This document shows positions 3,765 through 62,892 of a stretch of DNA of 64,000 nt, one piece after another; position 1 is the stretch's first letter, and each line of letters opens with the position of its first letter. Source of the stretch: a virus (taxonomy: Duplodnaviria > Heunggongvirae > Uroviricota > Caudoviricetes); IMG/VR virus record IMGVR_UViG_3300012348_000120; one strand, 5' to 3'. The notes below the pieces were generated by a model. That model was given only the letters and a program-made list of their open reading frames with translations, had not been told where the DNA came from and did not search any database. The translations under genes were made by a program, and so were the position numbers.

Positions 3765-6700
3765 TTATAGCTGAACGTATTCAACTGTTACTAGTGCTGC
3801 GCCTGCTGTTGCTGCTGAAACTAGAGAGATAGTTGCACCTGCTGCTGTAGCTGTTGCGAATGGTAGTTCTGCAACGTAGGTTCCAACTACATCTTCTTCG
3901 ATTTCTGCTGCTGACATTAGAGTATTTGTAGCATCAGAGATTGACACTTCTGCGTCATATGCTGATGTAACTTTTACTGTAATGCGTGAAACATAGTAGG
4001 TTTTGCCAGATACGTTCACGATTGAGCCGATTGAGCCTGATGTGCCCATTGTTGCGCGTAGAACGAAGGAGTTCTTGTTTGCAACTGCTGCATCTGCATA
4101 ATCTTGCATATCGGCTGTGTAGCCTGAATCTGCTAGGTATGCTGCAACGCGACCGTCTGTGTAGTATAGGTTGACTGAACCTTCTGCTAGTGCATCAGTG
4201 TCGTGGTTTGAAATGTCTGAAACTGTTCCAGTTACGTCACCAGTTAGATCACCAATGAAGTTTGCTGCAACGAAGTCTTCTGTTCCAACAGTCCAACGAT
4301 CAGTTGTTTCGTCCCATACAAGAGAAACATTTGTTGATGTTCCACGCTCAACTTCGATACCAGCGTCCTGTGATGGAGCACCAGTCAAGTTTGAGTTTAG
4401 AACGATTGTGTTGTCTGCTAGAGCGATAGTTTCAGTATTAACAGTGGTTGTTGTTCCTGCAACGATTAGGTTACCTGAGATTGTTACGTCTGCTGCGGTA
4501 ATGTCGTTTGAGAACAATGTTCCGTTGACAGTAACATCATTGAATGTTACGTCTGAGGTTGTTTCAACTGCCTGACCGATTGAGAATTCACCCGCTGAGT
4601 AGTGAACGCCTGTTCCTGCTGATAGGTGAGCACGAACTTCTGATGCTGATGGACCTGTGTAGGTGAATGCGCCTGTTGCTGAGTCATATGAGAATGAACC
4701 ATCGCCGCCTGCGTCAACTGCACTTAGTAGACCCTTGATGTATGCAGCATGGTTAGTAATGTCAGAAATCTGACCTGTTACGTCACCTGTTAGGTCTGCA
4801 TATACGTTGTTAGCATAAACGTTGTTCCACTCTTTTGAAGCAGTACCTAGATCGAATGTGCCTGTAACGTCTGGAATGAAGTCTGATGCTACGTCTGCAT
4901 TGAACTCAACATAATCTGTATCTGCGTCACCTACGATTAGGTTGCCTGATAGTGTCATGTTGTTACCATAGATGTTTGCTGAGAATGTTGCATCTCCTGC
5001 TACGGTTAGAGAACCGTTTACATCTAGGTTACCATCAACAGTTGCGTTTCCAGTAGCAGTTAGGTTGCCTGATAGTGCTGCTGAATTACCATTGACGGTT
5101 AGTGTTCCGCCGATGATCGCATCACCATTCTGACGAACTTCAAATAGCTTCAGTGCGTCTGATGAAACAACTTCAAATACGTTTGCAACGTTTGATCCTA
5201 GTGCTTTTGTTGCATTTGATTCTACAGTTACTAGTTGTGATAGAACTGTATTACCAACTACTTCTAGATCACCAGTCATAGTCATTACGTTTGCATTGAT
5301 GTTTGCTAGGAATGTAGCATCACCAGAAACAGTAATACCGCCGTCAACAGTTGCGTTTCCACCAATGTGAACATCGCCCGCAAATGAGGACTGTCCTGTT
5401 CCATTTACTGTTAGAACGCCACCAATGACTGTATCGCCGTTTTGCATAACTTGGAATAGTTTATCGTCGCCAGATGCATCTGAAACTTCAAATACTGCTG
5501 TTGTTGATGAACCTAGACCAGTTACGTCTGACTTGATGGTCACTTTTTCTGATAGGATTGTATCACCAGCAACGGTTAGGTTGCCTGATAGTGACATTGT
5601 ATTACCAGTGATGTTTGCTTGGAATGTTGAACCGCCTGTAACAGTCAACGCGCCACCAACTGTAATATTACCAGTTGCTGTTACGTTTGCAAATGTTACG
5701 CTGTCAGTTGTTCCAACTGCTTGACCGATTGAGAACTGACCGTTTGAGTAAGAAACGCCTGTTCCTGCTGATAGGTGAGCGCGAACTTCTGCTGCTGATG
5801 GACCAGTGTATGAGATTACACCAGTTGATGAGTTGTATGATAGAGAACCATCACCACCGTTATCAGTTACAGAAATTGCCGCACGTGCACGTGCGTCTGT
5901 GTAGTATAGGTTTGAACCTTCGTCGATGTCATCAGTGTCAACATTAACATTGACCCACTTTGAGCCGTTATACATTAGAAGATCGCCAGAAGCAGATGAT
6001 GTTAGGGTAACGTCATTTAGCTCTGATAGTGCGTCTTTTCCTGCTGCTACAGTAGTAATGTATGCACGTAGGTCGGTGTCTAGTGTTGAGATTTCACCGT
6101 CAGTGTAGGTGTTTGCATCTGCTTCTGCTTGGTCAGCGTATGACTGATATGCAGTTGTGATAGCAACTTCACGTGCATCTGTATATGCGTTTGCATCTGC
6201 TTCTGCTTTTGCAATTGAACCTTCTACGTTTGCAGCGCCTTCAATGATGTCTAGACGACCGTCTAGTGCATTTTCTGCGTTTGTTGCACGTGTTACTTCG
6301 TCAGCTAGATCATTTGTTAGAACTAGTTCTGCTGCCATTGCACGTGTTACTTCGTCAGCTAGATCATTTGTTAGAACTAGTTCTGCTGCCATTGCGCGTG
6401 TTTCTTCAGCATCAATGTTGTTTTGTAGAGTTGTATCGTTGTTGGAGCGTGTTGTTGCTTCTGCATCGATGTTGTCCTGTAGAACGCCATCTGCTGCTAG
6501 ACGTGTTGCTGCTTCTGATGCTAGATCGTTTGTTAGTGTGGTATCTGCTGCCTTATATGCAGTATCAACTGCTTTTAGTGCTGCGTCTAGTTTGTTGTCT
6601 GCATCTTTTAGAGATACTGCGTCTGCGATATAGTTCGCCAAAGCGTTTGCAGTGTAGCCACCATCGGTGCCTAGACCTGCGCCAGCCTGTGTTGCATCTA

Positions 6701-6938
6701 GTTCTGCTTGAACTGCTGCTGAGTCTGAACCTGACTTTGAATCAACATATGCTTTTGACGCTGCGTCATTTGCATGTGCTGGTGTGGTAGCAACGCGGAT
6801 GTTGTCTAGTGTGGAACCGTCAGCCTGTGTTACTTTGAATACTGAGTTACCAGCATCATATACAACACGGCCACCAGCTTTACCAAACTGAACGTCAGCG
6901 GAAATACCAGATAGACCGAAATTCTTGATATTAGCCAT
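3765..6938 (-). CDS. large virion structural / tail-fibre-like protein
   Basis: Gly/Thr/Asn-rich beta repeats and an N-terminal coiled coil; start moved to MANIKNF (AGGAG RBS). Confidence 0.7.
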   Translation of the reverse strand: MANIKNFGLSGISADVQFGKAGGRVVYDAGNSVFKVTQADGSTLDNIRVATTPAHANDAASKAYVDSKSGSDSAAVQAELDATQAGAGLGTDGGYTANALANYIADAVSLKDADNKLDAALKAVDTAYKAADTTLTNDLASEAATRLAADGVLQDNIDAEATTRSNNDTTLQNNIDAEETRAMAAELVLTNDLADEVTRAMAAELVLTNDLADEVTRATNAENALDGRLDIIEGAANVEGSIAKAEADANAYTDAREVAITTAYQSYADQAEADANTYTDGEISTLDTDLRAYITTVAAGKDALSELNDVTLTSSASGDLLMYNGSKWVNVNVDTDDIDEGSNLYYTDARARAAISVTDNGGDGSLSYNSSTGVISYTGPSAAEVRAHLSAGTGVSYSNGQFSIGQAVGTTDSVTFANVTATGNITVGGALTVTGGSTFQANITGNTMSLSGNLTVAGDTILSEKVTIKSDVTGLGSSTTAVFEVSDASGDDKLFQVMQNGDTVIGGVLTVNGTGQSSFAGDVHIGGNATVDGGITVSGDATFLANINANVMTMTGDLEVVGNTVLSQLVTVESNATKALGSNVANVFEVVSSDALKLFEVRQNGDAIIGGTLTVNGNSAALSGNLTATGNATVDGNLDVNGSLTVAGDATFSANIYGNNMTLSGNLIVGDADTDYVEFNADVASDFIPDVTGTFDLGTASKEWNNVYANNVYADLTGDVTGQISDITNHAAYIKGLLSAVDAGGDGSFSYDSATGAFTYTGPSASEVRAHLSAGTGVHYSAGEFSIGQAVETTSDVTFNDVTVNGTLFSNDITAADVTISGNLIVAGTTTTVNTETIALADNTIVLNSNLTGAPSQDAGIEVERGTSTNVSLVWDETTDRWTVGTEDFVAANFIGDLTGDVTGTVSDISNHDTDALAEGSVNLYYTDGRVAAYLADSGYTADMQDYADAAVANKNSFVLRATMGTSGSIGSIVNVSGKTYYVSRITVKVTSAYDAEVSISDATNTLMSAAEIEEDVVGTYVAELPFATATAAGATISLVSAATAGAALVTVEYVQL
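6286..6395. repeat. 54-bp tandem repeat (2 copies) in the coiled-coil region
   Basis: Encodes AMAAELVLTNDLADEVTR twice. Confidence 0.9.
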
Positions 6939-40039: not shown

Positions 40040-40468
40040 TTATTTCTCTTTCAACAGGTCTAATGCTACATAGTCAGTGACAGTATTGTCGTAATGTTCA
40101 TACGAAAGTTTTTTTAGTTCTGGATACTTTTCTTCTAACCGTCTATTTCGCATATCGATCTTTAATGCATACGTAGTGGACTTGTGAGAAAATCCATCGC
40201 CTTCAAAACCAACATATGGGACTACTTTTCGGTCATCAGATGGACCATCATACACTACTTTTTCTGTAATTACAACAACTCTTCCATCGCCCAAGCAAAA
40301 TTTACAAGAAGTTCTGACAGTAGTGTAATCGTTGCGATGGTAGTCAGTTAGTTCTTCGCGTGTTATGATTCCTATGCCATTACAATGTGGGCATAGTTGA
40401 ATCTCATTGGTTTCTATAAATCTAACTGCACTTCTGCGCTCTACAAGTATGTTGATGTCTTTAATCAT
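40040..40468 (-). CDS. DnaJ-type Zn-finger protein
   Basis: CPHCNGIG and CKFCLGDG. Confidence 0.6.
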   Translation of the reverse strand: MIKDINILVERRSAVRFIETNEIQLCPHCNGIGIITREELTDYHRNDYTTVRTSCKFCLGDGRVVVITEKVVYDGPSDDRKVVPYVGFEGDGFSHKSTTYALKIDMRNRRLEEKYPELKKLSYEHYDNTVTDYVALDLLKEK

Positions 40469-40937
40469 CTTCGCTTCGTATTGCCTCTTTATACTCTGGA
40501 CTATCTGGCATTGTGAATGGAAATGTTATAGGAACTCTACTATCACGACTTGTAAAGTATGACTTGAATGGTTTTCCATTATCAATGTCTGGGCTGGAAT
40601 ACCATTCCCAGAACACAATGCCATCTTGCCAGTATGCACCTGTATTATCTTTGAACACGTTAGAGGCACGGCGGTTCTGAAAAAGTCCATCTGCAACTTC
40701 GTTCCACTCGTCATCTTCACCAGTAAGTGGGGTCAGTGGTTTGTATGCAAGAACACGTTGCAAGATGGATAGTGCATATGACGCACTAAATCCAGAATGT
40801 CCTTCTTCCGAAAAGACTTCTACCATACGAATGATGTGATCTCTCATATGATAATCCATACTTTCACCAGTTCGGTCATTATTTCCAAGATTGAGAATAT
40901 CCAATTCGGATTTTGCGTAATTCAAGAGGTTGCCCAT
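40461..40937 (-). CDS. conserved phage hypothetical protein
   Basis: FSEEGHSGFSA...PLTPLTGEDDEW. Confidence 0.6.
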   Translation of the reverse strand: MGNLLNYAKSELDILNLGNNDRTGESMDYHMRDHIIRMVEVFSEEGHSGFSASYALSILQRVLAYKPLTPLTGEDDEWNEVADGLFQNRRASNVFKDNTGAYWQDGIVFWEWYSSPDIDNGKPFKSYFTSRDSRVPITFPFTMPDSPEYKEAIRSEDD

Positions 40938-51785: not shown

Positions 51786-52418
51786 TCAAGGTAGACGATT
51801 TTCCACGTCAAATGTTGTGATCGGACCTTTTGATCCTTTTTGATAAACCCCAACACATAGTCGGTTGGTGTAAAATGCACCACAATCCAAGTTACAACGA
51901 TTTATTGCGAACACTGGACCGTCACCATGCGGAGTATGCCCATGGTTCAAATACATAGTCGGATGATCAAACGATGCATACCTACCACGTCTACGCCAAA
52001 TCATCGCATGTTCAAGTTGCTGACTTGCTTCAAGTCGTTCATCCCAGTCGGCATGAACAAAGATATTATCGTCTTCAATGTGATAGATTTTGAGTTTATT
52101 GATCCAACGCAATACTTCGTCGTCAATAAATCCGCCAAAACTATCTAATATTTTTGGATCATATAGCTGATTTGACGAGCACCAATCATACATCAACATA
52201 TCTTCATGGTTGCCTTTGAGGCAAATATATTCCCAACCAGTTGGCGGAACACTCATCAAGTAACGAACAACCCCGCCACTATCTGGCCCACGATCAACAT
52301 AATCCCCAAGAAAGATAATCTTTCCAGAATCCTGACGTGAGAATATCTCCTTCAATGCAAGATCAAGTAAATCTTTTCTTCCATGAATATCTGCTATGGC
52401 GTAATATATTTCACTCAT
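51786..52418 (-). CDS. Ser/Thr protein phosphatase (metallophosphoesterase)
   Basis: IADIHG, GDYVDRG, LKGNHE, HGHTP, DCGA. Confidence 0.92.
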   Translation of the reverse strand: MSEIYYAIADIHGRKDLLDLALKEIFSRQDSGKIIFLGDYVDRGPDSGGVVRYLMSVPPTGWEYICLKGNHEDMLMYDWCSSNQLYDPKILDSFGGFIDDEVLRWINKLKIYHIEDDNIFVHADWDERLEASQQLEHAMIWRRRGRYASFDHPTMYLNHGHTPHGDGPVFAINRCNLDCGAFYTNRLCVGVYQKGSKGPITTFDVENRLP

Positions 52419-52437: not shown

Positions 52438-52592
52438 TGGTCAAGTGGGAAGGACTCGAACCTTCAACTGAGTTACAACTTACACATACTCTTGCAAATG
52501 GGTTCGTCTCGAGCCTACTACCACCCACTCAATGTGCCTCACTGTAACTCCACGGCCATCTGCCGCTGCGTCTACCATTTCGCCACCACTCG
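52438..52592 (-). ncRNA. tRNA-Leu-like RNA with truncated anticodon arm and ~85-nt variable domain
   Basis: CGAGTGG/CCACTTG-A-CCA acceptor; D arm TGGCGAAATGGTAGACGC; T arm gaagg-TTCGAGT-ccttc. Confidence 0.8.
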
Positions 52593-58888: not shown

Positions 58889-58895
58889 ATTATTT

Positions 58896-58978
58896 TGGCA
58901 TACGTGGGAGGAATCGAACCCCTTGTGGACGGTTTTGGAGGCCGTTGTCATTACCAAATAACTTTACACTCCACGTAT
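58896..58978 (-). tRNA. second tRNA-Trp(CCA)-like, irregular
   Basis: About 7 extra nt between acceptor and D arm; one mismatch in the anticodon stem; CCA. Confidence 0.65.
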
Positions 58979-58985
58979 ATATTTT

Positions 58986-59074: not shown

Positions 59075-59194
59075 TGGTGCGTATGGCTGGAGTTGAACCA
59101 GCATGTCACCATGACTCATTCAACCACCGTTGAACTTATGGATTTGAACCACCTTACGTCCGTCGACGTGCGTCTACCATTTCGCCACATACGC
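59075..59194 (-). ncRNA. tRNA-Leu-like RNA without anticodon loop, expanded variable region
   Basis: GCGTATG/CATACGC-A-CCA; D arm TGGCGAAATGGTAGACGC; ACGTC-GACG-GACGT; extra T-like arm. Confidence 0.8.
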
Positions 59195-60004: not shown

Positions 60005-60033
60005 TTTATAGACTGATTCGCTTATAAAGTCAA
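60005..60033 (-). promoter_or_regulatory. sigma70 promoter with CGAATCA at the head of the tRNA array
   Basis: TTGACT-N7-CGAATCA-N3-TATAAA. Confidence 0.85.
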
Positions 60034-60048
60034 CATCTTTTTTCAATA

Positions 60049-60082
60049 AAAAACCCTCCGAAGATTTTCATCTTGGAGGGTT
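60049..60082 (-). terminator. intrinsic terminator
   Basis: aaccctcc-aagat-gaaa-atctt-c-ggagggtt followed by a T-run. Confidence 0.8.
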
Positions 60083-61492: not shown

Positions 61493-61582
61493 TGGCGGAA
61501 GGTGTGGGATTCGAACCCACGAGAGGTTTCACCCCCTGCTCGTTTAGTAGACGAGTGCCATCGACCGCTCGGCCAACCTTCC
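61493..61582 (-). tRNA. tRNA-Ser(ACU)
   Basis: Type II cloverleaf, ctcgt-ct-ACT-aa-acgag, G73, CCA. Confidence 0.92.
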
Positions 61583-62697: not shown

Positions 62698-62794
62698 TGG
62701 TGTTGGTATGGGATTTGAACCCAGTTTTGAACAATTTGCCACACCGCCTGCCCGTAGTGTATATGGCAACATCAGCACACCATGCCAGACCAAC
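62698..62794 (-). ncRNA. CCA-ended RNA with acceptor and T arm but novel body
   Basis: GTTGGT/ACCAAC-A-CCA; tggg-TTCAAAT-ccca; ttgcca/tggcaa stem. Confidence 0.65.
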
Positions 62795-62892
62795 ATAATT
62801 TGTCGTATGCATCTTTAGAAATTCTACCCAGTCCGCTGTATATGTGCCGCAGCAAGTTATACAGCATCAACCTAGTCCAATCATCAACACTT

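Follow-up and report, generated by a model that had tools for sequence, protein, structure and literature searches.

The tRNA-like domain of tmRNA imitates an acceptor stem and a T arm and is charged with alanine without an anticodon. Bacterial LeuRS does not read the anticodon. In A. aeolicus, the LeuRS reaction depends critically on A73 and on the U8-A14, G18-U55 and G19-C56 core of the tRNA; removing the anticodon stem-loop entirely reduces affinity by only 2.5-fold, and editing requires the anticodon arm (PMC2377443). Phage T4 encodes two stable RNAs, C and D (species 1 and 2), which are small non-tRNA RNAs located among tRNA genes of the same strand. RNA C is 139 nt long and has a T arm and an acceptor-like end; the roles of both RNAs are still unknown (PMC3014915). 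The bacterial tRNA-like RNAs YrlA, a Y RNA, and b7a-tRNA are non-decoding tRNA mimics whose genes adjoin those of RtcB and other RNA ligases, and they have been proposed to aid RNA ligation (bioRxiv 10.1101/312249). The RNA gene described below most likely belongs among the phage tRNA mimics.

The window analysed here is a 64,000-nt stretch of DNA from a large uncultivated phage (IMG/VR record IMGVR_UViG_3300012348_000120). Its minus strand, from 59194 to 59075, reads as a candidate 120-nt RNA gene with an encoded CCA. The outer parts of the predicted mature RNA (59075-59194; all its parts are given here on the minus strand) are those of a bacterial or phage class II tRNA-Leu, namely a 7-bp acceptor stem, U8, a 3-bp D stem with the loop AAATGGTAGA (G18 G19), a T arm, A73 and CCA. 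The 5' strand of the acceptor stem (positions 1-7, 59188-59194) forms seven perfect pairs with the 3' strand at 59079-59085 (GCGTATG/CATACGC). It is followed by T8 G9 (59186-59187) and directly by the Leu-type D arm (59170-59185), which reads GCG-AAATGGTAGA-CGC. Unlike tRNA-Leu, the element has neither an anticodon arm of 5 bp and a 7-nt loop nor an ordinary variable arm; their place is taken by a stump closed by a tetraloop and by a module of 55 nt that includes a second T loop. The stump, hairpin 1 (59157-59168), reads CGTC-GACG-GACG and consists of 4 bp and the tetraloop GACG, with an optional fifth pair A26-T39. An internal T-arm-like hairpin, T1, lies at 59138-59152 (GTGG-TTCAAAT-CCAT; 4 bp, loop TTCAAAT), hairpin 2 at 59119-59134 (TTCAAC-GGTG-GTTGAA; 6 bp, or 7 with a G-U pair, and the tetraloop GGTG) and a D-loop-like GG motif at 59103-59113, with G85 G86 at 59110-59109. 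The canonical T arm, T2 (59086-59102; GCTGG-TTCAACT-CCAGC; 5 bp, loop TTCAACT), precedes the closing segment at 59075-59085, which holds the acceptor 3' strand, the discriminator A73 at 59078 and CCA at 59075-59077.

The Rfam tRNA model RF00005 aligns to 59078-59194 with 39.7 bits under relaxed filters (gathering score 29, E 2e-7). The alignment jumps 60 nt at the position of the anticodon arm and, together with the sequence, keeps the cloverleaf order of 7-bp acceptor, D arm and T arm. The anticodon arm standard for tRNAs (5-bp stem, 7-nt loop, U33, purine 37) is not present, hairpin 1 having 4-5 bp and a 4-nt loop, and neither ARAGORN nor Rfam calls the element at default settings. The element cannot read a codon. 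An initial annotation of this DNA had noted the A73-CCA end and a 4-nt loop where the anticodon belongs, and both are there. It had also reported that the 18-nt D-arm sequence recurs in a second RNA at 52438-52592. The 18-mer TGGCGAAATGGTAGACGC, comprising T8 G9 and the D arm, has exactly two minus-strand copies and no others in the window (59170-59187 and 52568-52585), with a chance expectation of 0.

The closest known RNAs are class II tRNA-Leu for the chassis, T4 RNAs C and D for the setting, YrlA and b7a-tRNA for a similar logic in a different build, and the tRNA-like domain of tmRNA. The element resembles the two T4 RNAs as a small non-tRNA RNA among same-strand phage tRNA genes. It differs from them in that no Leu-type D arm is seen in the RNA C/D sequence, and the family model R1 presented below matches only the tRNAs of T4 (L128), not 4909-5172. 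A T arm, a closed hairpin and a D-loop-like GG give the inner module a likeness to the tRNA-like head of YrlA, which is permuted. The two RNAs differ in that the element lacks a Ro60-binding stem and has an acceptor stem that is open and ends in CCA, and the YrlA model (RF02553) gives no match to the element at E values up to 10. Unlike tmRNA, it has no mRNA-like part and no pseudoknots, is of Leu type rather than Ala type and possesses a genuine D arm; neither the element nor its family members are matched significantly by the Rfam tmRNA model.

A family pattern combining the D arm, the inner T loop and the terminal T loop was scanned over metagenome contigs and returned 78 stretches, many of them with the whole plan of the 59075-59194 element. 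The covariance model R1, built from 19 of these stretches, identifies 35 distinct sequences in viral and metagenome contigs as members, each scoring at least 62 bits. The window element scores 108.2 bits over the full model length, and ordinary tRNA-Leu genes score about 35-50 bits. When the pattern was applied to one genome each of 185,579 prokaryote species, four stretches were returned and none was a family member. Since, in addition, several R1 members sit on IMG/VR viral contigs or beside phage genes, the family looks phage-borne. Near and distant BLAST searches with the element and two family members found no homolog in 50,697 phage records. One match of 40 nt, found in SBSphiJ-group Bacillus phages, falls inside a coding gene and was rejected as a family member. 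The Rfam scan of family members returned generic tRNA and no other family, and the literature on anticodon-less, tRNA-Leu-like or phage tRNA-like RNAs gave no description of the R1 family. The element is a member of a conserved phage RNA family, apparently undescribed in the literature searched.

The architecture is supported by covariation. In the alignment fitted to the R1 model, on which the main count rests, standard pairs fill 95.9% of pair cells; shuffles reach 63.5% and slid partners 37-41%. A MAFFT alignment, which is not fitted to any model, gives 89.8% against 63.5% and 34-44%, respectively. Compensatory changes in the model-fitted alignment affect all seven acceptor pairs, the four pairs of hairpin 1, the five modelled pairs of hairpin 2, both variable pairs of the inner T stem and three variable pairs of the terminal T stem. 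Hairpin 2 is paired in 81% of cells across the family in this same fitted alignment, and is the one helix of six not recovered by RNAalifold alone. The Leu identity positions are strictly kept, with T8 and G18 G19 in 35/35 members, A73 in 32/35 and a near-invariant D arm, while the acceptor stems vary freely. The loop of hairpin 1 is a tetraloop in 24 of the 35 members, usually GGCA (the window copy departs from this, with GACG here and GGTG in hairpin 2), and none of the 35 has a 7-nt loop there; ARAGORN finds no tRNA with a triplet anticodon among them. The initial annotation had named intact 7-nt anticodon loops in homologs as the observation that would speak for recent degeneration, and had preferred a functional class to random decay. 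Its preference agrees with 35 distinct sequences sharing one architecture, compensatory changes in all helices and conservation at the level of tRNAs against the close relative L121.

The extra T-like arm that it described is retained as a GGTTCRANNCC hairpin in 34/35 members. The inner loop follows the rule TTCRANN with invariant GG/CC closing pairs, and half of the members have a pyrimidine at what would be position 37 of an anticodon loop; it is therefore a T loop and not an anticodon loop. Among the three extra hairpins listed in the same annotation, the T-like one and hairpin 2 are family features. The third (catg-gtga-catg), which overlaps the T stem by one base (G93), is not conserved in relatives, which keep a GG motif at that place instead. 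This GG, between hairpin 2 and the terminal T arm, is found in 30/30 linkers against 14.7 expected, a value reached by none of 2000 shuffle sets, and in several members the site reads AATGGTAGA, identical to the D loop of the same RNA. The presence of two T loops and two GG loops suggests two D-loop/T-loop elbows, the second being a permuted one that the T arm, the closed hairpin and the D-loop-like GG strand of the inner module may form.

In the window, the element lies in a tRNA array of 20 ARAGORN calls, all on the minus strand between 51.7 and 63.1 kb. Protein genes lie scattered among these tRNAs and encode an ornithine-decarboxylase-like enzyme, methyltransferases, a Sir2 protein, a PP-loop ATPase and a phosphoesterase. 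The nearest neighbours of the element are a tRNA-Ile(GAT) and a tRNA-Met, 7 and 11 nt away. The best cultured relative of the decarboxylase belongs to a 469-kb Sinorhizobium phage (45% identity), and two IMG/VR contigs encode it at 94%. Syntenic loci of more distant relatives, with decarboxylases 58-65% identical, contain neither the element nor intermediate homologs. Because the element is absent from a more distant relative that is 92% complete, it is accessory. Compared with the close relative L121, it differs at one of 120 bases, in a region where identity is 86-91% in aligned blocks and just 57-88% in some non-coding stretches nearby; its conservation equals that of the surrounding true tRNAs.

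The CCA end is encoded at all six loci whose tRNAs encode CCA and at none of the eight whose tRNAs lack it (Fisher estimate ~3e-4, or ~1e-3 once close relatives are merged). At the loci examined, the element always occupies the strand of its tRNAs. Since its CCA state follows that of the tRNAs of the same locus and the strand is always shared, the RNA is probably matured like a tRNA, with a CCA end. Upstream on the minus strand (60005-60082), a terminator-like hairpin with a T run can be read at about 60082-60046, followed by TTGACT-17-TATAAA at 60033-60005. As a start of the tRNA-array transcript this site is a weak candidate, because it is absent from the sites of a consensus scan that itself shows no excess over chance; promoter and terminator consensus scans found sites no more often than expected by chance.

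Other features of the window deserve mention. A tRNA-shaped segment at 58889-58985 (minus strand), between a tRNA-His and a tRNA-Met, is passed over by ARAGORN and has a weak tRNA-Sec match of 29 bits as its only Rfam match; its slot does not align in L121 (8% identity). ARAGORN calls a tRNA-Ser with anticodon ACT at 61493-61582 and a 97-nt tRNA-Cys with anticodon ACA at 62699-62795, both on the minus strand. These anticodons are unusual and may mark further non-canonical tRNAs. At 40461-40937 (minus strand), an ORF strongly matches Tad3, an inhibitor of type I Thoeris (PF25185, E 2e-36), and lies near genes for a MazG-like pyrophosphohydrolase and a dCMP-deaminase-like protein.

In one clade of the family, the RNA gene is found outside any tRNA array, between genes for RtcB and an Rnl-type RNA ligase. 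The RtcB side is seen in contigs L136, L146, L169 and L172, and the Rnl-type side in L159 (with a gap of 16 nt), L176, L191 and L204. Within this solitary clade the RNAs are 92-100% identical, compared with 71-82% for the flanking RtcB genes and 80-88% for the Rnl genes at the DNA level. A compact cassette of RtcB, Leu-frame RNA and Rnl-type ligase is represented by L169 3388-4921, L159 651-1436 and L204 1003-2040, and the stretches examined contain no tRNA genes. Small ORFs between RtcB and the clade RNA have no Pfam match. The linkage with ligases is limited to this clade. In G001, a close relative of the window that is 56% complete, RtcB was not found, and an Rnl gene some 30 kb away from the element is the only ligase detected. 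Searches of five related viral contigs revealed no gene for a class Ia synthetase and none for RtcB; one of the five has a TROVE/Ro60 gene, and G001 has none.

The Leu-type frame extends beyond the R1 family. The exact D-arm 18-mer is present in at least 120 IMG/VR stretches, many of which are ordinary tRNA-Leu genes according to ARAGORN. About 48 distinct oversized frames of 90-202 nt keep the acceptor, D and T arms around unrelated middle sequences. These anticodon-less phage RNAs have the same Leu-type frame as the element, with the anticodon arm replaced; most of them have unrelated inserts and are devoid of the inner T arm and GG module that define the R1 subfamily. In the window, the sister RNA at 52438-52592 (minus strand) is 155 nt long, holds a different insert of about 100 nt and has diverged copies in L063 and L133; a calcineurin-like phosphoesterase gene (51786-52418) lies directly downstream of it. 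The initial annotation treated the two RNAs as copies of one design with different inserts. This holds for the Leu frame, which they have in common, and not for the inner module, which the sister lacks (53.8 bits on R1, against 108.2).

Some metagenome contigs carry four to six Leu-frame RNAs in tandem (L137 607-1636, also L210, L151 and L155), with identical acceptor (AGTCAGG), D and T arms and different inner parts. The AGTCAGG-acceptor frame was encountered in dozens of unrelated viral contigs. In L024 (6164-6355, plus strand), a group I intron match is located just upstream of a Leu-frame RNA, and in L118 (2507-2945, minus strand) a tmRNA gene resides inside a phage tRNA array. An unannotated Leu-frame RNA is also present in the model Bacillus phage SPP1 (X97918; L231) between genes 10 and 11, at 6647-6756 on the plus strand. 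It has a 7-bp acceptor, a Leu-type D arm and a T arm with the loop TGCAAAT, without an anticodon arm or an inner T arm, and scores 26.9 bits on R1. The SPP1 RNA may offer an experimental handle on the broader class.

The element is in all likelihood a functional, non-decoding member of its family. As a whole, we read it as a tRNA-Leu-derived mimic that would act as a decoy or cofactor in a conflict over tRNA cleavage and repair, a reading from sequence to which we assign a probability of roughly 55%. The RNA would be transcribed together with the tRNA array, cleaved by RNase P at G1 and trimmed at its 3' end to the encoded CCA. It would fold as the top half of a class II tRNA-Leu, the acceptor stacked on the T arm and the D loop joined to the T loop in an elbow, with a tetraloop-capped stump instead of an anticodon arm; a second elbow would probably be formed by the inner module, with its T-loop hairpin, hairpin 2 and GG loop. 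The LeuRS identity set is complete in the window copy, with A73, U8-A14, G18 G19 facing U55 C56 and a class II D arm. Because the family keeps exactly the core that is critical for LeuRS, binding by this enzyme is plausible and leucylation conceivable; the chances of the RNA being bound or charged seem evenly balanced. Two considerations count against it: the anticodon arm is needed for editing in the A. aeolicus study, and the bulky inner module may interfere with LeuRS binding or charging. Such an RNA would present no loop for anticodon nucleases to cut, and its mimicry of tRNA-Leu could make it a decoy for tRNA-directed enzymes or a ligase cofactor in the conflict of phage and host over tRNA damage. 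A role in tRNA damage is favoured because the anticodon loop is absent, RtcB and Rnl ligases are neighbours in one clade and tRNA-like RNAs adjacent to RtcB are known. The specific assignment as decoy or repair cofactor is put forward tentatively.

The alternative that survives best, although we think it unlikely, takes the tRNA frame as a mere chassis providing RNase P and CCA processing and stability. The inner module would then do the work, its binding partner being a protein of phage or host or another tRNA's elbow, with no part for LeuRS or leucine. Conservation and covariation of the inner module agree with this, as do the more than 40 other oversized Leu-frame RNAs of viral contigs, whose unrelated inserts in the same frame resemble cargo on a scaffold, and the contigs such as L137 where several RNAs combine identical frames with different inserts. 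What the chassis explanation leaves unaccounted for is the strictness of the D arm and of A73 next to freely varying acceptor stems: any tRNA type could serve as a chassis, so that a strict Leu identity counts against it.

Less likely still is a dedicated leucine carrier, charged by LeuRS, whose Leu-RNA would feed an aminoacyl-transferase or sequester LeuRS or EF-Tu and thereby reshape host translation. The analogy is with tmRNA, charged without an anticodon, and with the non-decoding tRNAs kept by some bacteria for cell-wall synthesis. The complete LeuRS identity set and a CCA end that co-varies with the tRNAs would suit such a carrier. On the other hand, no gene for an aminoacyl-transferase or an aminoacyl-tRNA synthetase was found near the element, nor was a class Ia synthetase in any of the five related contigs.

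Given the family data, hidden decoding and pseudogene decay are both close to excluded. A real decoding tRNA would have to be spliced to a normal tRNA-Leu or use the TTCAAAT inner loop as its anticodon loop. If the inner loop of the window copy is placed at positions 32-38, it does supply U33 and an anticodon CAA that would read as Leu, and RtcB, the tRNA-splicing ligase of archaea and animals, adjoins the RNA gene in one clade. The anticodon CAA was nevertheless rejected on the family-wide loop data: TTCRANN and the invariant closing pairs hold throughout, the purine at position 57 would decide whether the supposed anticodon is CGA (Ser) or CAA, and the supposed position 37 is a pyrimidine in 17 of the 35 members. 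Splicing fares no better, as every excision tried failed to produce a stem of 5 bp capped by a 7-nt loop. The insert amounts to no more than about 60 nt, and neither a group I intron (Intron_gpI, at E values up to 10) nor another Rfam family was matched. That the gene is the recent wreck of a real tRNA-Leu, as its place in a tRNA array and the silence of ARAGORN might suggest, is just as improbable in view of a non-tRNA architecture shared by 35 diverged sequences with compensatory changes, of conservation equal to that of tRNAs against L121 and of the absence of an anticodon loop from every homolog.

Under our preferred reading of the element as a non-decoding tRNA-Leu mimic, a bolder and rather doubtful extension would see in a family of anticodon-free, two-elbow leucine acceptors of phages a novel type of RNA serving anti-defence or repair. 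LeuRS would bind or charge their outer tRNA-Leu body, which would withstand anticodon nucleases. Their inner elbow would either trap an immune nuclease or toxin directed at tRNA or bring RtcB and Rnl ligases to broken tRNAs.

For genome annotation, ARAGORN and default Rfam searches overlook these genes, and miscalls as odd tRNAs are possible. The old puzzle of the stable RNAs of phage tRNA clusters, exemplified by T4 RNAs C and D, gains a sharper form with a defined, covarying architecture. The family has retained the features that LeuRS requires and lost those on which the ribosome and anticodon nucleases depend, and one of its clades travels with two RNA ligases. If these RNAs are charged or act as decoys, they would represent a novel weapon at the RNA level in the struggle over tRNA cleavage and a natural aminoacylatable RNA outside decoding.
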